Source: Clostridia bacterium (lineage in GTDB: Bacteria; Bacillota; Clostridia; TANB77; CAG-465). From it: 48,075 nucleotides of DNA. The notes beneath the pieces are model-generated. The model was not told the origin of the DNA. It ran no database searches and saw only the letters and a program-made list of their open reading frames with translations. Location: positions 1 to 48,075 of the forward strand of contig JAVXNL010000004.1 of the NCBI GenBank assembly GCA_036645795.1. The letters run 5' to 3'. The translations under genes were made by a program, and so were the position numbers. Below are positions 22,244 through 40,085 of the stretch, piece after piece. The stretch's first letter is position 1. Every line of letters begins with the position of its first letter.

Positions 22244-22272
22244 ACTATACTATAAACAAAAATTTAAGTCAA
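22244..22272 (-). promoter_or_regulatory. Possible SigA-type promoter for the second module (TTGACT - 17 - TATAGT on the minus strand)
   Basis: The reverse complement of 22267-22272 is TTGACT and that of 22244-22249 is TATAGT, with a 17-nt spacer. It lies just downstream of the terminator at 22325-22360. Confidence 0.4.
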
Positions 22273-22324
22273 TATATTTCTGTTAATTTCTATAAAAAAA
22301 GTAAATACTCTTTGGCTTTCAAAA

Positions 22325-22360
22325 AGAACAGGCATGTTTTAAATAACGCCTGTTCTTTTT
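22325..22360. terminator. Rho-independent terminator after the first module
   Basis: 9-bp GC-containing stem agaacaggc (22325-22333) / gcctgttct (22348-22356). It is flanked by A5 and T5 runs, so a T-run follows the stem on the minus strand. Confidence 0.75.
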
Positions 22361-22391
22361 ATTTTAATTCTTTATATTTTTAAAAAGTATC

Positions 22392-22835: not shown

Positions 22836-22971
22836 AAGTTTCACCCCCAAACTTCACGAAATATATTTTATTAATAACTTGTTTTCTTGTTTTTATATTT
22901 TCAATATGTAGAGGTATTAATAGATATCTCTACATATTGCTTAATTTTTAAAATACAATTCCTTATTTATA

Positions 22972-26520: not shown

Positions 26521-26521
26521 A

Positions 26522-27964
26522 CTAGTTACCACCTTTCTGCTGCATAATACCAGAATCTTCTTTGTTTAATAACAAATTATATATTGCATTTTGACTTATA
26601 TATAAAGTATTAGTTCCTATTGCGTTTGACATACTTACATCTATATATATGGTATACTTGTCATTTTCATATACTATTTTATCTCTTTGTAATAAATCTT
26701 GGAATAATAGATTTTCCTTTGTATTTGAATTTTTAATTTCAAATGTAAGTTTCATTCTTACTTTATATACAGATCCATCATAGTATATTGCAGGAATTTG
26801 TGCTGTTGCTTTTCCTTCTATTTTAATTTTATTTTCTTTAACATAATCTACATACTTTTGATAATTTTCATCGGTATCATTTACAAGTACATATTTTTTC
26901 ATTTCTTTTTTCATAGCATCTTTATCTATAGTTGTATAATCTACATTTAGTATATTATTAAAATATGATTCTGATATATATTTCATACTAGCAAATAAAT
27001 CTTTATTTTTTCTATATAATTCTTTAGGATTTATAAACGTTTTATTATCGTTTATATTAAATGGTATTTCATATGCACTCTTATCTACCGTTGCAAGTGT
27101 ATATGGATACACCCCTGCATTACTAGGTATTTTTTCTGGATTTATGTTTAATTTTTCGCCAGCAAGTGCAATTGTAGAATATTTATTAACATAATTTGTA
27201 ATAATTTCATTTACTTGTCCTTTAAATACGTAATGTTTTCCATTTATTTTTTTTGTATTCTCTACAATTAATTTATTATAAATAATATCATCTATTGCTA
27301 TTTTTTCATCTGGAGTATACATTTCATAATCTTTTAGCGATGCATGCTCTGATGTGTCTAGTGTCTTTCCTAATATTTTTAATTTTGCGTTTGAAAAATA
27401 TCTTATAACCTCAGCGTATGTTACTTTATCTTGGGCATTAGCTTTATTTATCTCATCTTTATTTATAATACCTGCTCTTAGAGCATAGTCTACCCATATT
27501 GCATTTTTATAGTCCTCTACTGGTTTATCTATATAATTTGTTATATCATTTTCATTAAGAGATGCTACAATAGCCATTTTTAACGCTTCTGATTTTGTAA
27601 CTTTTTGCCCTGTTTTTGAACTACTGTTATCATACATAATATCAAAGCCATATACTTTCATACTATCTTCATATTTAAAGTAGTTTTTATATTTTAAATG
27701 ATAAACTAGTTCATATACCCCAAATCCAATAGCTGCTATGCAAAGAATTCCAAGTAATATAAACAATATACTAAGTTTGGATTTAAAAATCTTTTTCTTA
27801 CCACTAGATGAACCATTTTTATCATGTTTTCCATGCTTTTTATTTGACACCTTATTTTCTTTTGCATAAGATGGTATTATCTTTTTTTTGCTATTATCTT
27901 CTAGATTAGATTTGTTTTCAATAACACTCTTTTTTTCATTTACATTATCTTTTTGATTCTTCAA
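26522..27964 (-). CDS. Single-pass membrane protein with a K/N-rich cytoplasmic head and a large external domain; paralog of 20610-22184
   Basis: 480-aa ORF with a TTG start preceded by AGAGGAGG and TM segment LSILFILLGILCIAAIGFGVYELV. Its stop (TAG, 26522-26524) is 1 nt from the next gene's ATG, which suggests translational coupling. Confidence 0.65.
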   Translation of the reverse strand: MKNQKDNVNEKKSVIENKSNLEDNSKKKIIPSYAKENKVSNKKHGKHDKNGSSSGKKKIFKSKLSILFILLGILCIAAIGFGVYELVYHLKYKNYFKYEDSMKVYGFDIMYDNSSSKTGQKVTKSEALKMAIVASLNENDITNYIDKPVEDYKNAIWVDYALRAGIINKDEINKANAQDKVTYAEVIRYFSNAKLKILGKTLDTSEHASLKDYEMYTPDEKIAIDDIIYNKLIVENTKKINGKHYVFKGQVNEIITNYVNKYSTIALAGEKLNINPEKIPSNAGVYPYTLATVDKSAYEIPFNINDNKTFINPKELYRKNKDLFASMKYISESYFNNILNVDYTTIDKDAMKKEMKKYVLVNDTDENYQKYVDYVKENKIKIEGKATAQIPAIYYDGSVYKVRMKLTFEIKNSNTKENLLFQDLLQRDKIVYENDKYTIYIDVSMSNAIGTNTLYISQNAIYNLLLNKEDSGIMQQKGGN

Positions 27965-27978
27965 AACGATTCCTCCTC

Positions 27979-29175
27979 TTATGGATTACATATTGGACAA
28001 GGATAAAATCCTTTTATTGTTGTAGTAACTTTAGCTTTATCATTACCAGTTGTTAGTGAAGCTTCTGCTAAAGCTGCTGCCGCTTGTTTAGATGTTGTAT
28101 ATCTTGGTGATATACCCTCATGTATAGAAAGACTATACTCTGGACAATTTACATCCTTATGATATAAATTAGTTTTAAATTTAGAATTACCACTAGGAGC
28201 TGTCAAATAAAATCTTGTAACTAAATCAAGTTTTGACAAGCCATAAGCTTTTGAGTTTAAATATTTATTTCCAACTGATAGCCCTTGTACAAATGCCATC
28301 ATTCCAATATTGTCTATACTTGAGTTTATATCAGCTGTAGTTGTTGGTGGAAATGAGAAATTATAACTAATTCCTGCAGATTTTGCATATGAATTATTTG
28401 CATTTACTGCATATCCCATTTCTGCTATAACCGAATCTGCTATGACAACCTGTCTTTTTTGATTCAAATTATTTACTATAGTAGTTGCAATTCCTGCATC
28501 ATTATCGTATAAATCTTTGTTATTTATACTGTCTCCAATATAAAAAGACTTAACTTGATAACTTTCTTTTCTACCACCATTTCCATAATACATACCTCTA
28601 TGTACTATATAATCATCTAATGAAAAATCAATTGTATGTGTAGAAACAATATTATTTCCTGTTAAAACGCCTTCTTCTATAGTTTTATTACTACCATCTT
28701 TTTTTATAGAATACGAGTATGTATAGTATCTTTTTGGTTTTAAAGCATGTTGCATTAAATCATTACCACTATTATCTTTAAAAGTCTCTATTGATGATAC
28801 CTGTACCCCATTATAGTCAATTATTGCAATTGCTGGGATGAACATTTGCAAATAATGCTCTGCATTTGCATTTCCTTTTATGCCAAGATTATTATATAAC
28901 GAATTTAAAAATGTATCTACTGCTACTTGTGCATTTACACTTACTTTTTTATCTGTAGAACCAGAATATCCATAATCTATATCTTGATCAGAGTTTTCTA
29001 CTTCTTTCATTTGGTTTGCTGCGTCTTGAGCTGCTGAATTTATTATTTTATTATAATACATTTCTTGCTCTTGTGCTTTTATTGTAAAAGATACATTTAC
29101 ATACACTGTTATAATCATTGGGAGTATTACTCCTATAAATATTAGTGCAAAGTCAGTTAATTTCAAATTTTTCAC
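27979..29175 (-). CDS. TadE/TadG-like pseudopilin-type protein with a C-terminal Ada-like zinc-binding motif
   Basis: The N-terminus KLTDFALIFIGVILPMIITVYVNVSF resembles the TadE N-terminal hydrophobic segment. The C-terminus LYHKDVNCPEY...(~45 aa)...GFYPCPICNP matches the pattern YH....C ... G(F/Y)xPCxxCxP. The start may be the TTG at 29166 (SD GGGGTGA) rather than the GTG at 29175. Confidence 0.55.
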   Translation of the reverse strand: MKNLKLTDFALIFIGVILPMIITVYVNVSFTIKAQEQEMYYNKIINSAAQDAANQMKEVENSDQDIDYGYSGSTDKKVSVNAQVAVDTFLNSLYNNLGIKGNANAEHYLQMFIPAIAIIDYNGVQVSSIETFKDNSGNDLMQHALKPKRYYTYSYSIKKDGSNKTIEEGVLTGNNIVSTHTIDFSLDDYIVHRGMYYGNGGRKESYQVKSFYIGDSINNKDLYDNDAGIATTIVNNLNQKRQVVIADSVIAEMGYAVNANNSYAKSAGISYNFSFPPTTTADINSSIDNIGMMAFVQGLSVGNKYLNSKAYGLSKLDLVTRFYLTAPSGNSKFKTNLYHKDVNCPEYSLSIHEGISPRYTTSKQAAAALAEASLTTGNDKAKVTTTIKGFYPCPICNP

Positions 29176-29238
29176 CCCTTTACTAATTACATTTTATTCT
29201 GCTTTTTATATTTTTAAATTATTATTTCCAAAATCAAT

Positions 29239-29634
29239 TTAAGGACCTACGTAAGTGATTTTTGCATATCCACTTCCATATCTTAGACCACTTTTAGTTT
29301 GAGTATTACTAAGTGTGTATGTAGAATGTCCACCAACATAGCCTGAACCGCCAGCGCCTCCACTATTAAATGAAACTCCTGCGCATCCGCCCCAGTAGCC
29401 GCCACCGCCGCCACCTATATCTGTAGCTTCAGTAACATTTTGGCCATAAAATACTGAATTTCCACTATTTTGAGTTCCAGGCTTTATACGGTCATCTAAA
29501 CCAATCAGTTCCCAAGGGTTATATGTAGTTCCTCTTTCACCAGATAGGCCACCACCGTCTCCACCAGAACCATCATCAATTTCACCTGCATTTTCTCCGC
29601 GTAATATTATCAGAACCACCGCCGCCGCCAGCAA
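29239..29634 (-). CDS. 3' fragment (glycine-rich domain continuation) of a frame-interrupted TadE-like gene
   Basis: This ORF has no SD or signal of its own. Its sequence GSGGDGGGLSGERG...GGGGGGYWGGCAGVSFNSGGAGGSGYVGG continues the glycine-rich domain that begins in 29582-31309. Confidence 0.65.
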   Translation of the reverse strand: MLAAAVVLIILRGENAGEIDDGSGGDGGGLSGERGTTYNPWELIGLDDRIKPGTQNSGNSVFYGQNVTEATDIGGGGGGYWGGCAGVSFNSGGAGGSGYVGGHSTYTLSNTQTKSGLRYGSGYAKITYVGP

Positions 29635-31309
29635 CTATTAGTCTATTATTTATACTGTTTCCAAGTATTCTAATATCAGTTCCGCCACCGCCGCCAAATC
29701 CTACATTAAAACCTGAACTTGCAGGATTCTTATTGCCATTTCCGCCACCGTTATATCCACCTTTACTCCAATTAGAAGCCTCAGGAGTTCCTCCTGTATA
29801 CACATACAACAAATCGCCTTCATTTAATTTAGTATTTCCTGATGAGTATCCACCTTTTCCAGCTCTACTGCCTTTTCTTTCATCTCTTTCGCCGCCGCCA
29901 GATGCACCCCAAACCTCTAGTTTATATGTTCCAGCTTTTGCTATTTGAACTTTTTGCTCCCCTTCAACATAATCAAATGTCTGTCCTACTATATTAAAAG
30001 GAGACATATAATGAGTATTTATATCGACTGTAGGTGACAAATTACAACCAATTTCGCCAATTTTTCCTTGTATATTACTTATTTCATAATAAAATTCACC
30101 TATATCAGATGCATCGTTAATTTGTACATTTCCAGAAAATTTAGAAAGATTTGCAATATTTTTAAGTCCCTGAAGATCAGATACTTTATTTTTTCTAACA
30201 ATATAATAAATACTGTCACCTATATTAACATTTTCTGCTTTATCTAAAAGATATTTTCCAGAAACTATTTTATATGGACCTTCAATTCTCTCATCTACTA
30301 ATCCAATATCTTTTGATATATTAATAATACCAGATTCTGCATATTTATTTTTACTTGCAATTCCTTGCAATATATTAGCTGGTAGTATAAGTTTAAATCT
30401 CTTTGTTGAAGCGCCTGGTGAATTTATATCAAAGTACTTATCTAAATCACTTTTTTCAAAATTAAAAGTCACTTCATATTTTATAGTTTTAGTATGCTTT
30501 TCTTCATTTGTAACACTACTTATAAAGGTTGTCCTAGTAGGAGATGTTTTTTTACCAGAAAGTGTAGTTGAATCTTTAACCTCAGCTAACTGTAAATTTG
30601 CTATTAGCTTATCACTTAAGTTTTTCTCTTCGTTTATGTCTAAATTTATTACCTCAGCCATAAAAGTTATCTTTGTATCTTCTGGAAATTTATACGCTTG
30701 TTTAACCTCTGTTAACTTTACTGCTATATCATCTTTAAATAAATTACTAGTAAGTGTTGTTTCCCAAGTATTATTTTTTACAATTCCACCATAATCTACG
30801 ACAATTCTTTCTTTTTGAGAAGCTGGCGCTATAAGTTGGAATACTGAACCGGCCATTGTCATACTACTATTTTTTAGTTTTACATATAGTTGATCACCTT
30901 TATTTAAAAAATACACATCATTTTTTAATTTTTTACGATTTAGAGATGATGTTTTATCATTTCCTTTAGAATAATTAGCGCCTTCAAATATATCTTCATT
31001 ATAGTCTACTTCAAACTGCTCATTATACTCTGCTGCATTTAAAGTATCTTTTGTAAATATTTTCTTATGTGCCTCTATCTGTATATCATATATATTACCG
31101 GTTGCAGATATTTGATCAATATATTTTTCATAATTGGCCTTGTCTAAATATCCAGTATTTAAAACTTCATCTACAAAATTAGTTGTAGCTTTTAGAGCAA
31201 GATTATATGACATGTTATCTTGTCTTTCAAAATAATTATAAAGTGGAAATATAATTATTAACAATACAAATACAATCATTGTTATTACTACACTTAAATT
31301 ATCTTTCAT
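29582..31309 (-). CDS. Large TadE-like pseudopilin with a C-terminal ALK/LTK-type glycine-rich domain (5' fragment of an interrupted gene)
   Basis: The N-terminus MKDNLSVVITMIVFVLLIIIFPLYNYFERQDNMSYNLALKATTNFVDEV is paralogous to the 32284-33432 N-terminus. The C-terminus TYKLEVWGASGGG...GKGGYSSG...LYVYTGG...GGGGGTDIRI...RLIVAGGGGGS is the typical Gly_rich pattern (PF12810-like). Confidence 0.7.
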   Translation of the reverse strand: MKDNLSVVITMIVFVLLIIIFPLYNYFERQDNMSYNLALKATTNFVDEVLNTGYLDKANYEKYIDQISATGNIYDIQIEAHKKIFTKDTLNAAEYNEQFEVDYNEDIFEGANYSKGNDKTSSLNRKKLKNDVYFLNKGDQLYVKLKNSSMTMAGSVFQLIAPASQKERIVVDYGGIVKNNTWETTLTSNLFKDDIAVKLTEVKQAYKFPEDTKITFMAEVINLDINEEKNLSDKLIANLQLAEVKDSTTLSGKKTSPTRTTFISSVTNEEKHTKTIKYEVTFNFEKSDLDKYFDINSPGASTKRFKLILPANILQGIASKNKYAESGIINISKDIGLVDERIEGPYKIVSGKYLLDKAENVNIGDSIYYIVRKNKVSDLQGLKNIANLSKFSGNVQINDASDIGEFYYEISNIQGKIGEIGCNLSPTVDINTHYMSPFNIVGQTFDYVEGEQKVQIAKAGTYKLEVWGASGGGERDERKGSRAGKGGYSSGNTKLNEGDLLYVYTGGTPEASNWSKGGYNGGGNGNKNPASSGFNVGFGGGGGTDIRILGNSINNRLIVAGGGGGSDNITRRKCR

Positions 31310-31401
31310 AAAATTATATTCCCCCTCAATTTTTAGATATTATTACTATTTTTTTACATCTACTAGCTTTTAATTTTCTTAACTTTTATATAAAGTTTGT
31401 A

Positions 31402-31845
31402 TTAAGACTTAGGTGTTATTGTTACCCTTGCAATTTTTTTGCCTTTCGCATCTACGTTTTCTGATTCATATCTTAAAACATACTCTCCTGTACCAATTGC
31501 ATCTTTTGCTTGTTCATAATTTAATGTTGAAGCTAAAGCACCATGTCTACCAGTTATGGTTAAATTATATCTATTTGTCATATTATCTGCCGAAGAAACA
31601 GAGTACATATCTTTTTGAACATAATTAAAATAGTATGAAATTACTTCAGATGGACTTAATGTTATTACATTATCTACTGGTATATTTTCAATTATTGCTT
31701 TATCTGATTTCACATTACCAAATTCATATGCTTTCTCAGCCAATGTTCCAACTGATGTAAATAAATATATAGTTCCTGTAAGTGCTATTATAAATATAAA
31801 AATATATACCCCTGTGTATATTGATTCATAAGACGAATCTTCCAT
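31402..31845 (-). CDS. Short pilin-like protein with an N-terminal hydrophobic helix (minor pilin candidate)
   Basis: 147-aa ORF with a strong SD AGGAGGTGA. The N-terminus is MEDSSYESIYTGVYIFIFIIALTGTIYLF, followed by a small globular part containing SPSEVISYYFNYV, which is similar to its neighbours. Confidence 0.55.
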   Translation of the reverse strand: MEDSSYESIYTGVYIFIFIIALTGTIYLFTSVGTLAEKAYEFGNVKSDKAIIENIPVDNVITLSPSEVISYYFNYVQKDMYSVSSADNMTNRYNLTITGRHGALASTLNYEQAKDAIGTGEYVLRYESENVDAKGKKIARVTITPKS

Positions 31846-31874
31846 AACTTCACCTCCTTTTTATTTATGTATTA

Positions 31875-32264
31875 CTATCTTGAAAAGTTAATTCTAGTCA
31901 TATCTTTTTGTCTTACTACTGTTGCGTTATATGTTGCAACTAAAGCGCCTGCGTTTTTTTGACCATTAACCTCAGCTTGCATTTTATCAATTGCGCCTGC
32001 TCCAGAAGCTCCTGACACACTAACTACTACTCTTGTATTGCTTCTATATTTTTTTAATGCATTTAAAACTTCAACTGACGTTTTTTTAGTATTTTCATAA
32101 GCATCAAATTCATTAAACTCACCAGTTATAGAATTATGTGTTTCATATACATGTTTATATATTTTTTGTATCTGCCCCAGGCTAAAGAATATCCCAGAGG
32201 TTATAACTATCGTTACAAATATTGCTGCTGCAATTGTTATAGCTTTATTAGACATTACATCCAA
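31875..32264 (-). CDS. Short pilin-like protein (class-III-signal-like N-terminus)
   Basis: 129-aa ORF with a TTG start preceded by AGGTAGGTGAG. The N-terminus is MDVMSNKA-ITIAAAIFVTIVITSGIFF, and it has the shared downstream motif TSVEVLNALKKY. Confidence 0.6.
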   Translation of the reverse strand: MDVMSNKAITIAAAIFVTIVITSGIFFSLGQIQKIYKHVYETHNSITGEFNEFDAYENTKKTSVEVLNALKKYRSNTRVVVSVSGASGAGAIDKMQAEVNGQKNAGALVATYNATVVRQKDMTRINFSR

Positions 32265-32283
32265 GATATCTCACCTACCTTCT

Positions 32284-33432
32284 CTATCTTCCCTCAGCTA
32301 TTTTTGTTTGAATAAGCAATGCATCTACTGAACTTACAGTTCCATCTTTGTTTATATCTGCATTTTCAAAATTAATACCTGATAACGTTAAATCCCTTGC
32401 AACATGGCCTTGTACAACATATGCATCTTCATAACTTACTATTTTATCTCCATTTGCATCTCCTGGTATACGCTCTGTAGCAATCACAATGTTTAATTTA
32501 GCCTCATTTACTTTTTTTCTAAGTTCTCCTGAATCTGCTATATCTACTACTCCATCATTATTATAATCTGCTGCAATATAATTTGCTCCTGTTAAATTTA
32601 CTTTGCCTTTCAAGTAATTTTCTATAGTATTTAAATCTTTTATATCTACTAGATGATCACCGTTTGCATCTCCTTTTTGAAGAGTAGTACTAACTATTCC
32701 ACCTGTATTTTCCGTATGTTCTGCTGCAGGTGTTGTATCTATCATGTTTATAAGGTTTTCTCTGTAATCTTCATTTTCTATTGTTCCACCATAATTTATA
32801 TATACTCTTGTATTATTCCCTGTATCTACACCAAACGTTAGAGTATTAAATAATACTGTTGCAATTGTTACGTTAGTATTTTTTATTATAACGTTAAACT
32901 CATCTCCTACATTCATTGTATATGTATTTGCATCTTTATTATATATATTTGGTATAAGTGGTATATCTTTTATATTCATGCCTTTATACGAATTTATAAA
33001 ATTTTCTGCTGTTCTTCCTCCAAGTGGTTCTATTATCTCCTTTTCAGAAAATCTTTCTTCAGCTAATCCATAAGATAAAATATTTTGTGCCTCCTTCAAT
33101 CTTTCTGGATGTAAAATATAATCTGTTTTCCCAGTTATATCTGTATATGTAGTATTGTATTGATAAATTACAGGGTAATATTTTTTAGCTACATGCTCAA
33201 GCTTTACATCATATACATTCCCTGTTGCGCTTAAATTAGATACAAATTCATTATACATTTGATTTGTAATATACCCTTTACTTGTAACATTATTTACAAA
33301 ATTTGATGTTATTTTTAGAGCTAGCCCATATGATATGTCATCTTTTTTTTCAAAGGATATATATAATGGTAACATAAAAAAAATTATAACTGATATTAAA
33401 ATTGTAAATACTCTTTGTAGATTATCTTCCAT
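32284..33432 (-). CDS. TadE-like pseudopilin fused to two tandem dockerin modules
   Basis: 382-aa ORF with SD AAGGAGGG upstream. The N-terminus is NLQRVFTILISVIIFFMLPLYISFEKKDDISYGLALKITSNF. The C-terminal part has four EF-hand-like dockerin segments: GDANGDHLVDIKD, ADYNNDGVVDIAD, GDANGDKIVSYED and ADINKDGTVSSVD. Confidence 0.8.
   Translation of the reverse strand: MEDNLQRVFTILISVIIFFMLPLYISFEKKDDISYGLALKITSNFVNNVTSKGYITNQMYNEFVSNLSATGNVYDVKLEHVAKKYYPVIYQYNTTYTDITGKTDYILHPERLKEAQNILSYGLAEERFSEKEIIEPLGGRTAENFINSYKGMNIKDIPLIPNIYNKDANTYTMNVGDEFNVIIKNTNVTIATVLFNTLTFGVDTGNNTRVYINYGGTIENEDYRENLINMIDTTPAAEHTENTGGIVSTTLQKGDANGDHLVDIKDLNTIENYLKGKVNLTGANYIAADYNNDGVVDIADSGELRKKVNEAKLNIVIATERIPGDANGDKIVSYEDAYVVQGHVARDLTLSGINFENADINKDGTVSSVDALLIQTKIAEGR
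32293..32673 (-). other. Two dockerin domains (aa ~254-308 = nt 32509-32673; aa ~324-380 = nt 32293-32463)
   Basis: Each module has two D-x-N-x-D-G-x-(I/V)-(D/S)-x-x-D calcium-loop segments, each followed by a short helix (LNTIENYLKG, SGELRKKV, AYVVQGHVAR, ALLIQTKIAEG). Confidence 0.8.
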
Positions 33433-33466
33433 ATTACCCTCCTTTAATTTCTATATACTTTTACTT

Positions 33467-33865
33467 TTACTTTACAATTGTTATAACTGTTGCATTTCCT
33501 TGCCTACTTTTAGTTAGATTATAACTTTGATTTGGATATATTCCTCTTATTTCAGACTTAAAAACACTATTATCTATTCCTCCATCTAAGTTATTTATAT
33601 TAGCCTTACCGTTCATACTAACTTGAACATTATTGTTTTCTAAATAATAATATAATATATTTTTAGCCTCAGTTCCAGTTATTCTATTTTTCTCTAAAGA
33701 CTGAGCTATATTTTTGTTATATAAATCTGCTATATCTACACCAGGTCCTGCTGCTCTTACCATATCACGTGAAGCACTATAATATGTCATAACTGCAGAT
33801 ATAGTAATTATTGCTATAAATACACCAGCGCCTATAGTAATAGACCTTGTAACAACATCTTCCAT
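33467..33865 (-). CDS. Short pilin-like protein (class-III-signal-like N-terminus)
   Basis: The track ORF starts at GTG 33874, which lies inside the SD AAGGAAGGTGG. ATG 33865 has proper spacing and gives MEDVVTRS-ITIGAGVFIAIITISAVMTYY. It has the shared motif TGTEAKNILYYY. Confidence 0.6.
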   Translation of the reverse strand: MEDVVTRSITIGAGVFIAIITISAVMTYYSASRDMVRAAGPGVDIADLYNKNIAQSLEKNRITGTEAKNILYYYLENNNVQVSMNGKANINNLDGGIDNSVFKSEIRGIYPNQSYNLTKSRQGNATVITIVK

Positions 33866-34041
33866 ATATGCCACCTTCCTTATTTTACTTGAATATAAAT
33901 TTTAAAAAATACACTAAAAATATTTGATTTAACTACATTTTTAGCCATACTTTTTAAAACATATATATTAGTGCAAAAGGTACATAATCTAATTATTCCT
34001 TAAATTATATACCTTGTTGCAATAAATATTTTAAACTTTTA

Positions 34042-34446
34042 TTAATTACTTGTAAAGGTAATTCCAGTAACATTATTTCCTGTACCATTTCTTGTTAAAG
34101 TAGATGTATACAAATCCCCTGGATTTACTGTTGAAGTTAAATTACCTATTCTACCAGCACCTGTAGCAGTATTGTTAAATACTACATTATTTACAGTTAC
34201 AGTTAGATTAGGATCTGTGTAATATCTCTTTACTGCAGCTATTACCTGAGAGCCTGTTACTCTAGTATTCCCATCATAATCCGCTGTAAGTTGTGCTTGT
34301 AAACTTGATGATACATTCTCTGCCTCATCTTTACCTTTATTTAACATATCTTGTCCAAGACCTGTTATTAGCATTACTGCAGCTATTACTAAAATTGTTA
34401 TAAACAAACCTACACCAATCATAATTGCTTTTTGTGCATTATCCAT
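34042..34446 (-). CDS. Candidate major pilin of the Tad-like locus (non-Flp, class-III-signal-like N-terminus)
   Basis: 134-aa ORF, the first pilin-like gene after the platform gene, with SD AAAGGAGGGG upstream. The N-terminus is MDNAQKA-IMIGVGLFITILVIAAVMLITGLG. The body is Thr/Asn/Gly-rich. A 167-nt non-coding gap follows it. Confidence 0.6.
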   Translation of the reverse strand: MDNAQKAIMIGVGLFITILVIAAVMLITGLGQDMLNKGKDEAENVSSSLQAQLTADYDGNTRVTGSQVIAAVKRYYTDPNLTVTVNNVVFNNTATGAGRIGNLTSTVNPGDLYTSTLTRNGTGNNVTGITFTSN

Positions 34447-34518
34447 TTTTCATTTCCCCTCCTTTAAATAGACTATATATTAAACTTTTTTAAAGTTTAA
34501 ATCTTATTTGTTTTTTAG

Positions 34519-36573
34519 CTAAAAATTCATATTTGTAAAGAAAGTCATCATCTGCATAATACTTACTACCATAAGTGGTGCAACTAAGTATCCACCTATT
34601 AATATTACCATTGGAGTAAAACCTAATACTTTACCATAGCTTACTTTTTTATGTACAACTCTTTCATTTCCTTCTTTTCTTTTTTCGTAGAAAAAGCTTC
34701 TTTCTGTTTCTAATTCATCAAAAGCTTCTTTTACAGGAATCCTTTCAACTGCTGATTGCAATTGTTCTACAATTCTTGTAAAATCTTTATATGGTACTGC
34801 TTCTTTCAGCTCTTCCAAAGCTTGTTCTGCACCTGATTCATAATTGTTTAAACATGTAGCTATTGGTTCTTTAAAAGCATATGAAAATCTTCCCATCCAT
34901 TCTAGGATTGTTTGTACATCTATTCTATCAATATACATAAGCATTAATATAACTGATTGAAATTGCATTATTTCATTTTCTTTTTCCATTTCTCTTATTT
35001 TATTTTTTATAATTAAAAGTATTGATGGACAGTAATATGCAATTATACCAATTAAAAATGCTGATAATACTTGCCAGAATTTAACATATGAATTTTTAAC
35101 TGTATTTATTTTGCCATATACCCTGTCTACTGCGGTTTTATCAACCTCACCAGTATCTGGATCTACGAAATCTGTTTGTAATTGTTCTTTTGTTACATTA
35201 CTATTCTTATGAGATTCTATATAGCTTTTATCACTCTCCCTTATAGCTCTAGATGCCTCTTCTTGCTCCTCACTTAATTTACCAAATGATAAAAACTCTT
35301 GACTTACTTGTGTATATACACCTGATAAATCAATATATTGCATATTAAGTATTAATATAAAACTCAATAAAAATGCTACTACTGCTGATGTAAGTTTATT
35401 TACATATAGCCATTCTATTGTAAGGTAAGAGTTGGTATTCTTTATAAGAGCCTCTTCCTTTTTATATTTTCTAGTATGCTCTCTTGGTTTAAAAGCATCT
35501 ACTAGCATTTTAACAATTGTTACCCTATATAACTTATCTTGCCATTTTGCATTTGATACTCTGTCAAATTTTATTTCTTCAACATCTTCTTTTATTATTC
35601 TAAGCATTAAATAAGATATAAATATTGATACTATTATTATTGATTGTATCAAAAATCCAATACCACTTGCATAAAAGTTTGATAACGCCGGGAAACTTGA
35701 CTCTGCCCATGATTGCAATGGTTTTATTGCAACCAGTGGAACTACAGCTATAATATTTAAACTCCTAAACATATAGTTTATTTTATCTCTTTTTAATATT
35801 TCAAGATATATTTCACTCAAAATATTATTTAAGTTTCTAAGATAAACTGATGCTCCAGCAACTTTTCTATCACCTAAATCATATGTTAGATAAGATACTC
35901 CTGCAAATAGTTTTAAAAATCTATTTGGAGCTGTATCATAATACTTCTCTAGCTCAATTTCTGGATTATCTGCAAGAAGAGCATCTTTAATTTTTCTAAG
36001 TTGTGGTACAATTTCTTTATCTCCTAAATCATCTATTGCAGTATTAAAAGATTCATCTACCATACCATGTTCATGGAAGGCATGTCTAATACTTGTAAAT
36101 GCTTCGGGCATTTGTTTTAATATTTTCTCGGATACTGATGTTATACCAATGTCTATCATTTTTTCTGTTATTATTAATACACCTATTATAACAATAAGTG
36201 ACATATATAAATCATTAACCAAATTTAATAAAACAAATAAAGATATAAATAAAAATACTACTGCTATAAGCATTGATTTACCAGTTCTTCTTCTAAGCTC
36301 ATATTCTGTGTAATCATTTGTCATTTCCATTTTCAATCTTGTTTTTTTCGTATAATATTTTAAAACTGGCATTTTTACAAATGTAAGATAAACAACTAAA
36401 AATACTTTATCAAATCCATCTTTTACATTAAATTTATTTTTTACTACTAACTTGTCTTGAGCAAAAAGTATACTGTTTTTTTTGTATTTTTTCTTTACGC
36501 TCATATAATATATGCTTACAGCAAGTATTCCTACTATAGCAAATACTAATAAACCAATTGCTATATATAACAT
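34519..36573 (-). CDS. Polytopic inner-membrane platform protein with two T2SSF-like halves (fused TadB/TadC, GspF/PilC family)
   Basis: 684-aa ORF with multiple TM segments. It has two cytoplasmic helical regions with the T2SSF-like pattern (MPEAFTSIRHAFHEHGMVDESFNTAIDDLG... and ...IMQFQSVILMLMYIDRIDVQTILEWM...EPIATCLNNYESG). It starts 4 nt after the ATPase gene ends. Confidence 0.7.
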   Translation of the reverse strand: MLYIAIGLLVFAIVGILAVSIYYMSVKKKYKKNSILFAQDKLVVKNKFNVKDGFDKVFLVVYLTFVKMPVLKYYTKKTRLKMEMTNDYTEYELRRRTGKSMLIAVVFLFISLFVLLNLVNDLYMSLIVIIGVLIITEKMIDIGITSVSEKILKQMPEAFTSIRHAFHEHGMVDESFNTAIDDLGDKEIVPQLRKIKDALLADNPEIELEKYYDTAPNRFLKLFAGVSYLTYDLGDRKVAGASVYLRNLNNILSEIYLEILKRDKINYMFRSLNIIAVVPLVAIKPLQSWAESSFPALSNFYASGIGFLIQSIIIVSIFISYLMLRIIKEDVEEIKFDRVSNAKWQDKLYRVTIVKMLVDAFKPREHTRKYKKEEALIKNTNSYLTIEWLYVNKLTSAVVAFLLSFILILNMQYIDLSGVYTQVSQEFLSFGKLSEEQEEASRAIRESDKSYIESHKNSNVTKEQLQTDFVDPDTGEVDKTAVDRVYGKINTVKNSYVKFWQVLSAFLIGIIAYYCPSILLIIKNKIREMEKENEIMQFQSVILMLMYIDRIDVQTILEWMGRFSYAFKEPIATCLNNYESGAEQALEELKEAVPYKDFTRIVEQLQSAVERIPVKEAFDELETERSFFYEKRKEGNERVVHKKVSYGKVLGFTPMVILIGGYLVAPLMVVSIMQMMTFFTNMNF

Positions 36574-36577
36574 CCTA

Positions 36578-38470
36578 TCACCTCCAAGCTGTATCTATGA
36601 AATTGTCAAAAGTTCTAATATCTTCTGATGACATATTATCTCTCATAGCTTTAATATTTTCTTCGGTCATTGGATTTCTAAATACATATTTTCCATCTAC
36701 AAACTCAACTATATTTTTATATGTATAATTGTTTGTTTGTGTCATATGTTGGAAATATTCAACTGCATTGTCCATGAATTTTTCCATCTTTTGGTCCATT
36801 TCTTTTGCTTTTCTATAATCATTATTATATGTAAATGTTGGTTCCAATGGTATACATTCTGTTATTCTTTCAATAAATCTTGTACCATCTACACCTCTTT
36901 TTAAATGTATATCAAAGTTTATTACTTGAACAACTTGTACTTCTGCTACATTTTCAGAATTAAACATTCCAATTTTAAGTAATGAGTTTCTAAGTGCTGT
37001 TATTAAGTTTGGAAAAGTCTTAGCATGATGAGTAAACAAAGTAAACTTTGATGCAACCTGTGCCATTTGAATCATCCAAGCAGCAACTGGATCTGTTGCA
37101 ACCTCACCTAAGATATTAACTCCACCATCAGTTTTCTTCTGAACATCTAGTCCTTGTTGTCCATTTATTGTATCTGTTTCTCTAAGAGATAATATATTGT
37201 GGTATGGGTAAATCTTCCTTAAATGTAATTCAAATGCTGTCTCTTGAACCCTTATAGTAATTGTCGGATATAAATATTTCATTATAGCCATCAATAATGT
37301 AGTTTTACCACAACCTTGCTCACCTGTTATCGCAGTTACTCTAGCACCTCTAATTAAATACTTAAGTAATTCAATAACTTGTTCTTTACCTTCATGACAA
37401 AGTAGTTGTTCAGGTGATATTAATGTTGGAGGAGCAAATTTTCTTACGAAAAAAGCCCATGATTCAGAAAAGTTTGGTCTTAAAACAACTACCCTGGATC
37501 CATCTTTCATTTCATTTATTTTATAACCAACAGATTCAGACAACTGACCTGGATTATTATATTTATATATATTTTGACATACCCTTTTAAGTTCTGTTTC
37601 ACTTCCAAAAGATAAAAATGACAAATACGTCGCTTTACCTTTATAAAATATCCAAACAGAATCATAAGACATTGGTATTTTTCTATCATTCATTTGATCT
37701 AAATAGTCATCCATACCTACTACTTGATCTAAAAATGATGGTGGAATACCTGATACACCACCTGATATACCATCAATGTTCATATCACGTATATCATCTA
37801 CTACACTGTACCCTTTATATCTTTGATAAATTCTTTGAACTACAATTTCTAATTTATCATCAAAGGATAATGTATCTTGATTTACTTCTAAAGCAAATAT
37901 ATTATCGATTTCTTTTTCTGTTATAACATAAGAAGAAACTTCCGGATCAAATTCAAATTTAGGAGTGTCTAGCTTATATTTTGTTATAATTTGTGTTAGT
38001 GCTTCTGCTTTATATTGCTTTTTGTAAATATGCATTAATATCTCAAATTTATCTTGAGATTCTAACTGTTCAAAATCTTCAAAAGGTATTGCATTATTTA
38101 TATTAAAGTTGTTTACTTTATAGTTGTTTCTAAGCAAGTCAAACATTAGTGTTTTTACATACTTTTTATCACTTGCATCCGCATAACCAGCACCTTTTAA
38201 AGCTTTTTTTAGCTCATATTTTACATTTTTTCTTCTTTCAAATTCCTCTTCAGAAAGCGCTAAATCATATAAATTCATTCTAGTTATCTCATCAAATTGC
38301 TTCTTTATAAATTCCTGCATTTTCTCAAGACTAAATTTTGCTTTCTCTCTTGACAAATCATTTACTTGTTCTTTAGTTTCAGATTTTTTAATCTTATACC
38401 AGAAGAAGCCTCCTACAAAGGCAATAAGTAAGATTATCAATATAATATTTAATATAAATGCAATACTCAT
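36578..38470 (-). CDS. CpaF/TadA-family (T2SSE/VirB11-like) secretion ATPase with an N-terminal transmembrane anchor
   Basis: 630-aa ORF with SD AGAGGTGA 5 nt upstream of the ATG. It has Walker A ITGEQGCGKTTLL, Asp box RVQETAFEL, Walker B-like GVNILGEV and His box TLFTHHAKT. The N-terminus MSIAFILNIILIILLIAFVGGFFWY is a predicted TM helix. Confidence 0.8.
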   Translation of the reverse strand: MSIAFILNIILIILLIAFVGGFFWYKIKKSETKEQVNDLSREKAKFSLEKMQEFIKKQFDEITRMNLYDLALSEEEFERRKNVKYELKKALKGAGYADASDKKYVKTLMFDLLRNNYKVNNFNINNAIPFEDFEQLESQDKFEILMHIYKKQYKAEALTQIITKYKLDTPKFEFDPEVSSYVITEKEIDNIFALEVNQDTLSFDDKLEIVVQRIYQRYKGYSVVDDIRDMNIDGISGGVSGIPPSFLDQVVGMDDYLDQMNDRKIPMSYDSVWIFYKGKATYLSFLSFGSETELKRVCQNIYKYNNPGQLSESVGYKINEMKDGSRVVVLRPNFSESWAFFVRKFAPPTLISPEQLLCHEGKEQVIELLKYLIRGARVTAITGEQGCGKTTLLMAIMKYLYPTITIRVQETAFELHLRKIYPYHNILSLRETDTINGQQGLDVQKKTDGGVNILGEVATDPVAAWMIQMAQVASKFTLFTHHAKTFPNLITALRNSLLKIGMFNSENVAEVQVVQVINFDIHLKRGVDGTRFIERITECIPLEPTFTYNNDYRKAKEMDQKMEKFMDNAVEYFQHMTQTNNYTYKNIVEFVDGKYVFRNPMTEENIKAMRDNMSSEDIRTFDNFIDTAWR

Positions 38471-38493
38471 TGTTTCACCTCTTTTTATCTATT

Positions 38494-39309
38494 TTATACA
38501 TCTCTTATTTTAGCAAGTTCTATTATTTTTTCAACAATTCCATTAACTTGCGATATAAAATAACCATTATAGTCTTTTATATCTGCGTTCATATTTCTAT
38601 AGAAGAAATCTATTACATTTCCACTATTACATGCATCTGCAAATAAATAGTTATGTGGTACTGTAAATATTGGTTCTTTTATAGTGTTTTTTAATTTTAT
38701 ATTAGATGAATTAAATTTTGCTTTACCTTCATAGTCTCCAATAACAAATATTTTACTTTTGTTTTTCAACTCATCCATGTTATTTACTGTCTCAAAAAAG
38801 CCATCCAGTTTTACAACATCTTGATTTACAACACATACAACAATTTCGGCATCTAAAAGAGTGTCTGATATAAATTTATCGTCTGCAGACTTTGGTAAGT
38901 CAATAAATACTACATCATAAATTTCCGCTGCTTTTCTTGTGATATATGGTAAATTGTTTACAAGGTCCGAATATCCATCCATATCTTTAGAATTCATTCC
39001 ATATAGTATATCAAGTCTATCTTTTAAAACAGGCTTTGCATAGTTTTGTATAGCATCAGATGTTAATTTGTTACTTGTTACAAGCCTTATTAATGCACTA
39101 ATTCCAATACTTGAATTATCAAATACTCCACTTGACTTTAAATCATCATACGGTGTAAATGAAGATTCTATCTTCTTAGAATTGTAGTTACCTTGCATAA
39201 GTAAGCTATTAACTTTATGAGCTATTCCCATTAAAGTACTAACTGCAATTGCGGCATGTGTATTACCCGACATATTTTTTGTCGGACTCCAAAATACAAT
39301 TCTTGGCAT
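38494..39309 (-). CDS. TadZ/CpaE-like ParA/MinD-fold protein with a degenerate Walker A
   Basis: 271-aa ORF. IVFWSPTKNMSGNTHAAIAVSTLMG occupies the position of the deviant Walker A (KGGxGKT) but lacks the lysines. A Walker B-like VVFIDLPKS is present. Its start overlaps the upstream stop (TAATG at 39307-39311). Confidence 0.6.
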   Translation of the reverse strand: MPRIVFWSPTKNMSGNTHAAIAVSTLMGIAHKVNSLLMQGNYNSKKIESSFTPYDDLKSSGVFDNSSIGISALIRLVTSNKLTSDAIQNYAKPVLKDRLDILYGMNSKDMDGYSDLVNNLPYITRKAAEIYDVVFIDLPKSADDKFISDTLLDAEIVVCVVNQDVVKLDGFFETVNNMDELKNKSKIFVIGDYEGKAKFNSSNIKLKNTIKEPIFTVPHNYLFADACNSGNVIDFFYRNMNADIKDYNGYFISQVNGIVEKIIELAKIRDV

Positions 39310-40022
39310 TAATCTCTCCTCCTTTTAATTTGTTTTGTAACTTCTTTTGAAGTTACATCCTCTATTATCTGTGATGTTAAATCAGAAATTAGCCCTATAT
39401 ATGTTTTAGTATGCTTTTTTATATCTATAAGTCCACTAAACTGTGAGTCTATATCTACTAATTTGTCTTGTTCTTCAAGTTGTACTTCGTATTCTGGCTC
39501 TTGCCATTTCACATTATAACTGCTGATTTGAGTTTCAAAATACTCTTCTGCAGCTCTTGACATATATGTCTTATATAGTACCTTAGTTATCTTTATATCT
39601 TCTTCTTGAGGATTATATACCCTTATTGCTTTTATTAAGTCTTTATTTTTTACAACTGATAATATACTTGTATCTACAAAAAAGAATAATTTATCTATTC
39701 CTCTTGTTCTAAAAAACTCATACCCTTTTGGGCTGTCTATATCAATTATTATATAATCATACAATGATATATTAATTCCTTGATCTACCATATAATTTTC
39801 TACATCATGCATACTATCAAAACCTACAGCAAAGTCTATGTTATTATATTGAGTAACATATGATCTCCCCATATTGTCTAGTGATGGTACAACACATTTT
39901 ATTTTTTGGTCTAAGGTGGCGTCTACAACGAGCACCGCCTTATCCATTATATTTATTGTTCTAGCAAGATTTATAGCAAAGTCATATTTATCTACATATC
40001 CCATCATTCCAATTACTTGCAT
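39309..40022 (-). CDS. Second TadZ/CpaE-like ParA-fold protein with no recognisable P-loop
   Basis: 237-aa ORF. VIGMMGYVDKYDFAINLARTINIMDKAVLVVDAT follows the MinD/ParA N-terminal layout without GKT, and it has a Walker B-like YDYIIIDIDSP. Confidence 0.5.
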   Translation of the reverse strand: MQVIGMMGYVDKYDFAINLARTINIMDKAVLVVDATLDQKIKCVVPSLDNMGRSYVTQYNNIDFAVGFDSMHDVENYMVDQGINISLYDYIIIDIDSPKGYEFFRTRGIDKLFFFVDTSILSVVKNKDLIKAIRVYNPQEEDIKITKVLYKTYMSRAAEEYFETQISSYNVKWQEPEYEVQLEEQDKLVDIDSQFSGLIDIKKHTKTYIGLISDLTSQIIEDVTSKEVTKQIKRRRD

Positions 40023-40085
40023 CTATTATTCCTCCTACGTTTGTTAATTTACATTCCTAAAAAAACCATCTTTTTAATTTATTAG

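Follow-up and report, generated by a model that had tools for sequence, protein, structure and literature searches.

What are the four short, N-anchored proteins that follow a Tad-related machine in an uncultured gut member of the Clostridia, and are their N-termini cut as prepilin leaders? The window analyzed here is the whole stretch of 48,075 nucleotides (positions 1-48,075, forward strand) of contig JAVXNL010000004.1, Clostridia bacterium assembly GCA_036645795.1, in which the cluster genes all lie on the minus strand, at 27979-41174. Gene order and protein sizes identify the locus as the "TANB77 pilus gene cluster", which is in print as a putative pilus locus (Kim et al. 2024, Nat Commun 15:10726, PMC11680825), whose proteins 927-938 likewise come from uncultured gut Clostridia. 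Kim et al. list CpaB-like (358 aa), TadZ-like (231 aa) and CpaE-like (280 aa) proteins, a TadA/CpaF protein of 640 aa with one TM helix and a TadC+TadB protein of 693 aa with eight, followed by single-TM 'pilin-like' proteins of 143-237 aa and one of 621 aa. The window counterparts measure, in order, 362, 237, 271, 630 and 684 aa, then 134, 132, 382, 129, 147 and 575(+131) aa, and differ in that the counterpart of protein 938 is frameshifted and the 382-aa protein carries a dockerin; the gene order is identical in L001-L003 and about 75 loci. In that publication, the small proteins were named pilin-like from context and topology only, no EM, processing data or filament is shown, and the words prepilin, peptidase, leader, cleavage and N-terminal are absent from the text. 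New here are a common N-terminal template of the small subunits, its match to archaeal PibD-type sites (KA/IS, RA/LS; the slash marks the junction), a much larger family of such machines beyond the order TANB77, many with M-E-N-A-x-K-A-L subunits, and the absence of prepilin peptidase and Flp genes from 124 loci (2.2 Mb).

Rather than archaeal, the machinery is bacterial and related to Tad. Its first gene (40086-41174) encodes a CpaB/RcpC-like protein of 362 aa with an N-terminal TM segment and a SAF domain (Pfam SAF, 3.2e-5; ChapFlgA, 1.6e-4), which matches Kim et al. 927 (CpaB) in position and size and is present in 73 related loci. Two cytoplasmic proteins follow, of 237 aa (39309-40022) and 271 aa (38494-39309), each conserved in 73 loci and each without a match in Pfam and PDB sequence searches; they correspond by synteny to the TadZ-like 928, for which structural homology was reported, and to the CpaE/TadZ-like 929 of the published table (PMC11680825). 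The assembly ATPase (630 aa, 36578-38470) combines an N-terminal TM segment, a family-specific N-domain and a CpaF/TadA-like core; its best solved relative is CpaF (8rkd, 9e24; E 1.6e-7, residues 271-546), and it also matches TIGR03819 TadA (1.2e-5). The adjoining polytopic membrane protein of 684 aa (34519-36573), the presumed platform, is 53-76% identical in 77 loci and has no match in Pfam and PDB sequence searches; its AlphaFold2 model reaches a pLDDT of only 60, and Foldseek on this low-confidence model was uninformative. The CpaB, TadZ, CpaE, TadA and TadC+TadB homologies were given for the cluster by Kim et al., and our TadZ/CpaE and TadC/TadB assignments, including the division of the platform into TadC and TadB halves, are taken from there (PMC11680825).

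Such machines extend well beyond the close relatives of the window. The ATPase is 74-87% identical across related loci and has 334 representatives at E<=1e-30; among the 150 matches listed of these 334, most are nearly full-length at 31-63% identity, and many alignments begin within the first 10 residues. The same architecture occurs in Herbinix and in many other metagenomic lineages, and Kim et al. found few or no homologs beyond TANB77 among gut species at >=50% similarity, the ATPase excepted (PMC11680825). The 124 loci compared here comprise about 80 loci of close relatives (1.52 Mb) and 44 loci fetched for outgroups (0.64 Mb), three of which turned out to be of the TANB77 type; the 'MENA' loci were fetched through ATPases that share 33-43% identity with the Herbinix query ATPase.

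The first gene after the platform (34042-34446) starts at an ATG that AGGAGG precedes by a few bases and encodes the candidate major subunit of 134 aa, MDNAQKA/IMIGVGLFITILVIAAV. Two pilin-like paralogs are candidate minor subunits: one of 132 aa (33467-33865), MEDVVTRS/ITIGAGVFIAIITISAV, which starts at the ATG at 33865, a GTG at 33874 falling within the ribosome-binding site, and one of 129 aa (31875-32264), MDVMSNKA/ITIAAAIFVTIVITSG, whose TTG start is backed by orthologs with the N-terminus MDYMSNKA or MDAISNKA. The N-anchored neighbor of 147 aa (31402-31845), MEDSSYES/IYTGVYIFIFIIALTG, is the most divergent of the four. Past the junction they read IMIGVGLFITI, ITIGAGVF, ITIAAAIF and IYTGVYIF, respectively. 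The initial annotation had reported a nearly identical motif at the start of the first three, with neither the Flp site nor the Phe1/Glu5 of classical type IV pilins, and both its sequences and its positions proved correct: in the six-frame translation of the window, the strict form [KR][AS]I[MT]I[GA].[GA][LVI]F has exactly three matches, all at these N-termini, a looser form also catches the 147-aa protein, and direct reading finds no G-x4-E-[YF] and no F1/E5 in any of the four. That the small proteins are neither Flp nor classical type IV pilins is supported.

Each of the four forms its own ortholog group in about 63-78 related loci (72 for the 132-aa, 67 for the 129-aa and 63 for the 147-aa protein), and the 134-aa protein has more than 822 homolog clusters. 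Ala occupies -1 in 85-100% of members (88/88 in the 134-aa group, 61/64 in the 132-aa, 58/63 in the 129-aa and 45/53 in the 147-aa group), with V, T or L in a few TANB77 orthologs; K/R occupies -2 in 88/88, 61/64 and 60/63 members of the first three groups, and the 147-aa group has mostly E/D/Q there. Small-subunit orthologs carry I/L at +1, G/A at +4 and V, A, I, L or T, never an acidic residue, at +5, and the N-segment is constant in length (6-8 residues) and carries a net charge near zero rather than a basic one. Short hydrophobic sequences in an AT-rich genome might come to look alike by chance, and the common motif would then be a coincidence of unrelated N-termini; hardly any credence is left for this, since it is refuted by residue shuffles (no strict match in 300, against three observed), by the conservation of each position in 53-88 orthologs and by profile-profile comparison (93-99%, with two pairs still at 91-97% once the TM segment is taken out).

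A single diverged family of four, as the initial annotation had suggested, is borne out for three. With the first 35 residues removed, profile-profile comparison still links the 134- and 129-aa proteins (96.6%), the 132- and 129-aa proteins (90.9%) and, at 66%, the 134- and 132-aa proteins (98.4% for the 132-aa protein against the 134-aa family when the TM segment is kept). The 147-aa head has no detectable kinship to the others in the same comparison (0.9-45%), and this protein is tied to them solely through its N-terminal helix. Likewise, the further shared segment T/S-x-x-E-V/A-x-x-x-L/I/V-x-x-Y is exact in the 132-aa (TGTEAKNILYYY) and 129-aa (TSVEVLNALKKY) proteins, with one mismatch each in the 134-aa protein (Q replaces E, TGSQVIAAVKRY) and the 147-aa protein (Y at the hydrophobic position, SPSEVISYYFNY); at the family level it becomes YD-x(3-4)-TG-x-x-V-x-x-A-x-K-x-Y, located in the first short helix past the long N-terminal helix.

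The layout supports describing the small proteins as pilin-like: each opens with a few polar residues, continues with about 23 hydrophobic ones and ends in a variable head. In the AlphaFold2 model of the 134-aa protein (pLDDT 82), a continuous helix spans residues 2-57 and is followed by a short helix and several short beta-strands; the head is small and of alpha/beta type. They may instead not be filament subunits at all, but anchored accessory parts (like TadG, PilN/O or GspL/M) or ordinary surface or secreted proteins, whose hydrophobic segment would act as a signal-anchor or would be removed by signal peptidase I as a Sec signal. Searches of the small proteins by HMM, fold and Foldseek matched them to no pilin family, whether archaeal or bacterial. 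In Kim et al., DeepTMHMM predicted a signal peptide for one of the small proteins and a single TM segment for each of the others (PMC11680825), and a filament has never been observed. The 147-aa head is also unrelated to the other heads, and many 134-aa homologs carry a G-x-G past the hydrophobic stretch (ITG(L/M)G/Q). Sec signal peptides and plain anchors, however, are generally poorly conserved. Among 118 homologs of the 134-aa protein, mean pairwise identity is 98% over residues 1-7 and 93% over residues 8-30, against 54% over residues 31-57 and 42% in the head, and the predicted helix runs unbroken for 55 residues into the folded part. Moreover, in about 120 loci the ATPase and platform genes are immediately followed by four to seven pilin-like genes whose order is fixed, and the first gene is multicopy in some loci (two adjacent copies in L088, for example) and has hypervariable insertions in its head, as expected for an exposed polymer subunit. 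On balance, we regard a role outside the filament as unlikely.

We tentatively prefer, with a little under half of our confidence, a model in which a Tad-related (type IVc-like) machine builds a filament with the four short proteins as its small subunits, each carrying a class III-type N-terminal signal. Directly observed are the sequences, the motif and how well it is conserved, the homology that links three of the four proteins, the CpaF-like ATPase, the SAF protein and the synteny; we infer how the proteins sit in the membrane, that a filament exists, which role each subunit has and, most of all, that the N-segment is cleaved. The subunits would be made as bitopic membrane proteins, with the 7-8-residue polar N-segment, M-[DE]-x-x-x-[KR]-[AS], on the cytoplasmic side and a hydrophobic helix of 23-24 residues crossing the membrane; in the modeled 134-aa subunit this helix would run on as an alpha-1 of about 55 residues with a fast-evolving alpha/beta head outside the cell, a layout that we assume for the paralogs. 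The membrane-tethered CpaF-like ATPase and the 684-aa platform would pull subunits from the membrane, and these would stack through their nearly invariant N-terminal helices, the 134-aa protein as the major subunit and the 132-, 129- and 147-aa proteins as low-abundance priming or tip subunits.

Three larger N-anchored proteins may serve as accessory or adhesin subunits. The 382-aa protein (32284-33432) has an N-terminal anchor, a conserved N-domain (consensus PLY..FEKKDD.SY.LALKIT.NF) and a C-terminal type I dockerin (Dockerin_1, 2.4e-17), a domain noted for this genome; this N-domain has a paralog in the 575-aa protein and recurs in outgroup loci. The latter protein (29239-31309), pilin-like with an ALK/LTK-type glycine-rich domain, is split by a frameshift into overlapping frames of 575 aa (29582-31309; ALK_LTK_GRD profile positions 6-114) and 131 aa (29239-29634; positions 112-242), with unbroken 496-718-aa orthologs in L002, and is probably the counterpart of Kim et al. 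'pilin 938'. The last conserved core member, of 398 aa (27979-29175; MK.TDFALIFIG...), has an ortholog group in 64 loci, and outgroup loci encode proteins of about 329 aa with similar N-termini (MKLP.YIILF..., MKFTDYILSF...) at the same position.

In the preferred model, a prepilin (A24) peptidase whose gene would lie elsewhere in the genome would cleave the N-segment at [KR]-A/[IL], a site akin to those predicted for archaeal PibD substrates and not to Flp G/xxxxEY. Predicted PibD-type sites include KA/IS in UpsA, RA/LS in AapA/B and RA/VS and DA/VS in PilA; all systems require G/A/S at -1, those of archaea depend critically on a charged -2, and an acidic +5 is mostly bacterial (PMC4371748). 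With junctions KA/IM (134 aa), RS/IT (132 aa), KA/IT (129 aa) and ES/IY (147 aa), the resemblance of these N-termini to class III signals is real. The archaeal-type pilin interpretation of the initial annotation is partly supported: the [KR]-A/[IL] junction without an acidic +5 stands, and a pilin-family match, a peptidase gene near the locus and a net-basic N-segment are lacking. There is no Peptidase_A24-like gene in the window or in the 124 related loci, some of which adjoin a T4SS coupling protein or plasmid-segregation gene and look like mobile elements, so that processing of the N-segment remains putative; nor is there a small Flp-like ORF in the window, or a competing Flp or KG/FTLIE prepilin in the 124 loci.

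The lack of an A24-like gene in these loci favors a serious rival, doubtful though we find it, in which machine and filament are as above but the seven N-terminal residues are retained as the capped start of alpha-1 and no prepilin peptidase is needed. The residues would then be conserved for the packing and stability of the helix, not for recognition by a peptidase, with A4, A7 and G/A11 as a small-residue stripe on one helical face, E/D2 and K/R6 as an i,i+4 ion pair and N3 as the N-cap. Conservation indeed spans the whole segment, beyond -1 and -2, and M-D/E-N-A-Q/S-K-A is common to the TANB77 and 'MENA' systems; the fixed length and near-zero charge of the segment and the start of the predicted helix at residue 2 also fit. 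In outgroup small subunits, [KR][AGS] occupies the junction in only 38/103, L, W, Y or I stands at the position of the TANB77 Ala (DATK-L-LIFAA in both major-like copies of Herbinix), and some homologs have a charged +2 (MENMTKALE, MENAVEALK). However, the helix-face argument is our own inference, a charged N-segment inside a filament core would be unusual, and Ala at -1 (invariant in the major subunit) with K/R at -2 exactly fits a PibD-like enzyme. To our knowledge, no characterized type IV filament system lacks a prepilin peptidase. This enzyme is a core component common to type IV filament systems (Denise et al.), and its gene is often unlinked, as with the tadV 'loner', the MSH loci and B. 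breve.

Known systems that resemble the cluster include the Gram-positive tad-like loci without recognizable prepilins in C. kluyveri, C. cellulolyticum, C. bolteae, C. sp. L2-50 and D. hafniense (Imam et al. 2011), which are likewise clostridial, distant from ordinary tad genes and composed of tadA, tadC, tadZ and rcpC homologs with genes of unknown function; none of their proteins passes the PilFind prepilin rules, but tadV was reported there, against 0/124 loci here. With Tad/Flp (type IVc) systems of Aggregatibacter, Caulobacter and Bifidobacterium breve, the cluster shares a CpaF/TadA-like ATPase, a SAF-domain CpaB/RcpC-like protein, TadZ-like proteins, a TadB/TadC-like platform and subunit genes beside the machine; in B. 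breve the peptidase can likewise be unlinked. The cluster has no secretin, as expected in a monoderm. In contrast, Flp has about 60 aa and the G/xxxxEY site, whereas the proteins here have 129-147 aa with a folded head, Ala at -1 and no E5/Y6; subunit genes precede the machine there and come after it here. In the cluster, a single gene encodes the platform as a fusion in TadC-TadB order, the ATPase bears an additional N-domain besides its N-terminal TM segment, and no tadV lies in or near the locus. Archaeal PibD pilins (Sulfolobus UpsA and AapA/B, Haloferax PilA1-6) differ in that no sequence or fold homology to the window proteins was detected, the host here is bacterial with an ATPase closest to bacterial CpaF rather than to an archaeal one, a search of the window and the 124 loci found no PibD/FlaK-type peptidase, and the leader is not net-basic; they are alike in the short leader, charged -2, Ala at -1 and aliphatic +1, in not requiring an acidic +5 and in an H-domain far more conserved than the head. 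A type IVa class III signal is exemplified by MKAQKG/FTLIELMIV. Compared with type IVa pilins (PMC6916266), the small proteins have Ala rather than Gly at -1, Ile/Leu rather than Phe at +1, no Glu5 and no IPR012902/N_methyl match, and PilD, PilM, PilN and PilO are absent; both have a 6-7-residue leader ending in Q-K-small, then about 21 hydrophobic residues that make up the first half of a roughly 50-residue helix, in the same lollipop layout.

The four short minus-strand proteins of the window, of 134 aa (34042-34446), 132 aa (33467-33865), 129 aa (31875-32264) and 147 aa (31402-31845), are best read as subunits of the predicted Tad-like filament of the uncultured order TANB77, with one major subunit, two clear paralogous minor subunits and one that is more distant. 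The cluster itself is already known. Kim et al. 2024 (PMC11680825) reported it as kept in 122 of 129 TANB77 species, in the order CpaB (358 aa), TadZ (231 aa), CpaE (280 aa), a TadA/CpaF with one transmembrane (TM) helix (640 aa), a 693-aa protein with TadC-like and TadB-like halves and then seven 'pilin-like' proteins. The cluster of the window, compared by gene order and size, matches their proteins 927-938, and its close homologs come from gut MAGs named 'Clostridia bacterium' and from Clostridium sp. CAG:921, CAG:465 and CAG:1219. In that study (PMC11680825) the small proteins were assigned from context, promoters and topology only; its text does not contain the words prepilin, peptidase, leader, cleavage or N-terminal, nor any electron microscopy. 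A recombinant 621-aa 'pilin 938' led to dendritic cell activation via TLR4, and a better anti-PD-1 response was linked to TANB77 abundance and to one protein of the cluster (PMC11680825). What is new here is the N-terminal motif, the wider superfamily and the systematic absence of a linked peptidase.

The window has a G+C content of ~28%, and nearly all of its genes lie on the minus strand. A block of ~26 kb extends between a PBP5/DacB-type carboxypeptidase gene (41399-42658), a neighbour of the cluster that is also present in the close-relative loci L001-L003, and spoIID, an M23 peptidase gene, spoIIID and mreB-mbl (11834-15651). All on the minus strand, a 362-aa SAF-domain protein with an N-terminal TM segment (40086-41174; domain confirmed) is followed by a pair of cytoplasmic proteins (237 and 271 aa), a 630-aa CpaF/TadA-like ATPase with an N-terminal TM segment (36578-38470) and a polytopic 684-aa protein (34519-36573), after which the four short proteins are interspersed with larger N-anchored proteins of 382, 575 (plus 131) and 398 aa. 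Promoters and terminators scanned for around the subunit genes were no more frequent than in shuffled sequence, and the scan showed no terminator behind the first gene. Three other roles were rejected: a sporulation-specific function, the only basis of which is the dacB and spoIID neighbours, a sortase pilus and a T4SS pilin, each with no supporting feature in the window.

Further genes accompany the core cluster. On its 3' side lies a duplicated minus-strand module (15777-27964) of 480/524-aa, 1186/1183-aa and 152/150-aa proteins, with no Pfam match; the first pair has a Lys-rich N-terminus and a TM segment, the second pair has C-terminal halves that look alike by eye, the third pair is N-anchored, and ORFs of 167 and 148 aa lie in the same region. 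The 480- and 1186-aa genes have syntenic counterparts in L001-L003. Near the start of the window, on the plus strand (343-4920), a 1525-aa surface protein unrelated to the Tad-like cluster combines a thioester (TED) domain with 13 SpaA/prealbumin-like repeats, as Gram-positive adhesins typically do.

CpaF chains were the only secretion-ATPase matches of the 630-aa protein below E 0.01 in a phmmer search of the PDB (E 1.6e-7, residues 271-546), and the match to TIGR03819 TadA was weak (1.2e-5); the protein is a divergent member of the CpaF/TadA family with an extra TM segment and an N-domain. This domain spans ~250 residues, and residues 155-264 weakly match PDB 1rfz, a function-unassigned protein (E 0.003). 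The 684-aa protein had no T2SSF or other match in Pfam, none in the PDB by sequence or profile and no internal repeat when its two halves were compared by hhalign, and its AlphaFold2 (AF2) model from a shallow alignment (pLDDT 60) was too poor for a Foldseek result to be meaningful; the TadC-like and TadB-like halves of its counterpart were found by Foldseek (Kim et al., PMC11680825). The 237- and 271-aa proteins had no Pfam or PDB sequence match, and their assignment as TadZ and CpaE is that of Kim et al. (PMC11680825), based on COG1192 and on structural homology.

Two of the larger N-anchored genes have recognizable domains. The pilin-like 382-aa protein (32284-33432, minus strand) carries a C-terminal type I dockerin of two repeats (E 2.4e-17), and none of the window proteins scanned had a cohesin domain by Pfam. 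Its orthologs range from 221 to 654 aa; the 248-aa ortholog in L001 has no Pfam match, and the 496-aa ortholog in L002 has a glycine-rich domain in place of the dockerin. The glycine-rich pilin-like gene with an ALK_LTK_GRD domain (29239-31309, minus strand) is frameshifted near 29600, with profile positions 6-114 in the 575-aa ORF and 112-242 in the overlapping 131-aa ORF; the frameshift may be real, which would make the gene a pseudogene, or it may stem from an error of assembly. The 575-aa ORF is the probable counterpart of the 'pilin 938' of Kim et al.

The coordinates and sequences in the initial annotation proved correct, and so did the N-terminal motif that it described for three of the short proteins: the strict form [KR][AS]I[MT]I[GA]x[GA][LVI]F has three matches in the six-frame translation, each at one of these N-termini, against none in 300 shuffles, while the 147-aa neighbour matches only a looser version. 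In all four proteins a polar segment of 7-8 residues without net positive charge stands before 23-24 uncharged, mostly hydrophobic residues, and this layout of a leader before a hydrophobic domain, which belongs to the general definition of type IV pilins and class III signal peptides (PMC6916266, PMC4371748), is kept in 53-88 orthologs per group. With residues numbered from the putative cut (-1 the last residue of the putative leader, +1 the first residue after it), position -1 is Ala in 88/88 sequences of the 134-aa group, 61/64 of the 132-aa group, 58/63 of the 129-aa group and 45/53 of the 147-aa group; within the window it is always Ala or Ser, the latter in the 132- and 147-aa proteins. 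Position -2 is K or R in 88/88, 61/64 and 60/63 sequences of the first three groups and mostly E, D or Q in the 147-aa group. Downstream, +1 is I, L, V or M in all four groups, +4 is almost without exception G or A, three sequences having S, and +5 takes V, A, I, L or T, the acidic residue of bacterial pilins being absent from every group.

Each short protein forms an ortholog group, present in 63-78 loci, and gene order around the subunits is fixed among related loci. Homologs of the 134-aa protein fill more than 822 clusters, all unnamed and from uncultured Clostridia; a genome scan gave 77 loci, one per species-level genome, in records that include Clostridium sp. CAG:921, CAG:465 and CAG:1219. 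Mean pairwise identity in this family is 98% over residues 1-7, 93% over the hydrophobic stretch, 54% over the remaining helix and 42% in the head, which bears hypervariable insertions; N-glycosylation sequons in the heads showed no meaningful excess (2.3 versus 1.7 expected). One homolog (P0036) has a precomputed Pfam label, PF26613.1, which our local Pfam copy did not return for it and of which we found no mention in the literature; a recent Pfam entry may already cover the 134-aa family. Profile-profile comparison joined the four groups at 93-99%, but the proposal that all four belong to one diverged family held only in part once the first 35 residues were removed: the 134/129 and 132/129 pairs remained related (96.6% and 90.9%), the 134/132 pair was weak (66%), and the head of the 147-aa protein showed no detectable relation. 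Likewise, an internal T-x-x-E-V...Y segment had been ascribed to all four proteins; two have it exactly, but the other two each differ at one position, and at the family level the segment reads YD-x(3-4)-TG-x-x-V-x-x-A-x-K-x-Y.

Neither HMM nor fold searches place the four short proteins in a known pilin family. No pilin family was found by Pfam and NCBIfam in the four proteins, among the 25 families most frequent in 118 homologs of the 134-aa protein (Pfam, E<=10) or in 10 outgroup subunits (Pfam, E<=1); recurrent weak matches to MacB_PCD and His1_capsid were dismissed as hydrophobic-helix noise. The archaeal Pilin_N, Class_IIIsignal and Arch_flagellin HMMs had no match in window proteins at E<=0.1, were not among the same 25 families and were absent for the 10 outgroup subunits at E<=1. 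As for Flp/Fap (PF04964), the proteins have 129-147 residues rather than ~50-80 and no G-x4-E-[YF], and the Flp_Fap HMM did not match any of the 118 family members even at E<=10. A PDB profile search with the 134-aa family gave no match, and Foldseek with the AF2 model of the 134-aa protein gave no pilin in the PDB at E<0.1, the best match being no better than E 0.7. These results speak for a role of the small proteins outside a filament, a reading that we consider improbable. The AF2 model itself (118 sequences, pLDDT 82) has helices at 2-57 and 65-75, short strands at 82-85 and 88-90, a helix at 100-106 and longer strands at 112-119 and 126-133, an order of predicted elements that agrees broadly with a lollipop-shaped pilin, in which an N-terminal helix of ~50 residues bears a globular beta-sheet head. 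The alternative of a canonical Flp gene as the filament subunit, raised in the initial annotation, found nothing in its favor: regular expressions for Flp and for KG/FTLIE-type prepilins (a slash marks the cut) had no match in the 124 loci.

Relatives of the system extend beyond TANB77, which qualifies the published description of the cluster as confined to this order. Queried with the ATPase, a set of 1.84 billion representatives yielded 1110 matches at E<=1e-3, of which 334 reached E<=1e-30. Of the 150 matches listed (P0241-P0390), most are nearly full length, many aligning from within the first 10 residues, at 31-63% identity; one match is annotated cpaF1 in a Herbinix MAG. For the locus scan, a 50-sequence ATPase alignment was too diverse and a 12-sequence alignment worked. 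The same architecture, a SAF protein, two or three ParA-like proteins, a TM-ATPase, a ~680-aa platform, several small N-anchored proteins and homologs of the 382- and 398-aa proteins, was found in the Herbinix locus, in three others and in 40 metagenomic loci, three of which turned out to be TANB77-type. Thirty-two small proteins in 11 of these loci start with M-E-N-A-x-[KR]-A-[LIV], typically followed by x-[IM]-A-[GA], the same template as MDNAQKA-IMIGVG. One such family, with more than 1000 clusters and none named, matched the TANB77 family in residues 1-72 (probability 81%, E 1.2e-5) but not in the head. A wider superfamily of such machines would include at least two subunit families, of >800 and >1000 clusters. 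In one outgroup locus (L084, 1387-17096) the machine adjoins a T4SS coupling protein (TrwB/TraG), an NlpC/P60 hydrolase and a sortase, and in another (L083, 1-200) an ALP_N actin-like plasmid-segregation gene, a hint that conjugative elements or plasmids carry some of these machines.

Cleavage of the putative leader at the class III-like site is a reading that we favor tentatively, at somewhat less than even confidence. A peptidase would be expected to serve it. A hunt through the window, ~80 loci of close relatives (1.52 Mb) and the 44 loci retrieved as outgroups (0.64 Mb) turned up no A24-like peptidase ORF, and TadV was missing in and near the cluster in all 124 loci. The hunt used the expression G-x-[GA]-D-[VIALF]-[KR] with at least three TM segments and listed every ORF of 110-340 aa with at least four hydrophobic segments, a crude procedure covering ±10 kb, and the ORFs it returned were FtsX-like, ZnuB-like, EamA and similar proteins only. 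This absence does not refute cleavage, because unlinked prepilin peptidases are on record (the tadV 'loner', the MSH loci and B. breve). The cleavage reading is weakened by two other findings: [KR][AGS] stands at the junction in only 38/103 outgroup small subunits, with Leu, Trp or Tyr in its place in some major-like copies (e.g., Herbinix DATK-L-LIFAA), and the whole seven-residue segment, of fixed length and without net positive charge, is conserved across distant systems, not just -1 and -2. Both findings would suit an N-terminus that stays uncleaved, an explanation that we regard as possible and rather unlikely. We infer that A4, A7 and G/A11 share one face of the helix, with E/D2 and K/R6 at i,i+4 spacing; for a retained segment, this arrangement could account for the conservation. 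A further observation concerns the fifth small gene of some outgroup loci (L086, L087, L092, L098 and L121), where one paralog group shows a charge swap between positions 6 and 9 (MENMTKALE versus MENAVEALK); this i,i+3 swap, seen in few independent cases, spans the putative cleavage site, which would be strange for a segment cut at that point.

A bolder model, which we hold to be doubtful, is that this is the first type IV-filament-like machine without a prepilin peptidase, with M-[DE]-N-A-x-[KR]-A as a retained helix cap rather than a leader and the TANB77 cluster as one branch of a large unannotated Firmicute superfamily. In such a retained cap, the stripe of small residues and the ion pair would take over the part that N-methyl-Phe1 and Glu5 play in the chemistry of classical pilins. 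A peptidase-independent filament, if true, would overturn the assumed universality of the prepilin peptidase in the superfamily. The template gives a precise candidate processing site, A7/I8, and a sequence signature for finding subunits in metagenomes, where Pfam and NCBIfam detect none; it also allows a clear choice between two readings, a bacterial Tad derivative with a class III signal of archaeal style or a filament that needs no peptidase, and either outcome broadens the known range of type IV filament subunits.

Known signals provide the frame for this choice. G, A or S at -1 is required by all prepilin peptidases, a charged -2 is critical in archaea only, and an acidic +5 is mainly bacterial (PMC4371748); the predicted archaeal sites in Table 1 of that work include UpsA KA/IS, AapA/B RA/LS and Haloferax PilA RA/VS and DA/VS. 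The junctions of the four short proteins, KA/IM, RS/IT, KA/IT and ES/IY, all combine a charged -2, G, A or S at -1 and a hydrophobic +1, as at PibD-type sites, a likeness of layout only. They fit neither Flp (G/xxxxEY) nor the bacterial definition of Gly at -1 and Glu5, and the archaeal class III resemblance originally proposed for these proteins is borne out as a description. At the sequence level, the class III-like layout is real, and its form is closest to the predicted substrate sites of archaeal PibD.
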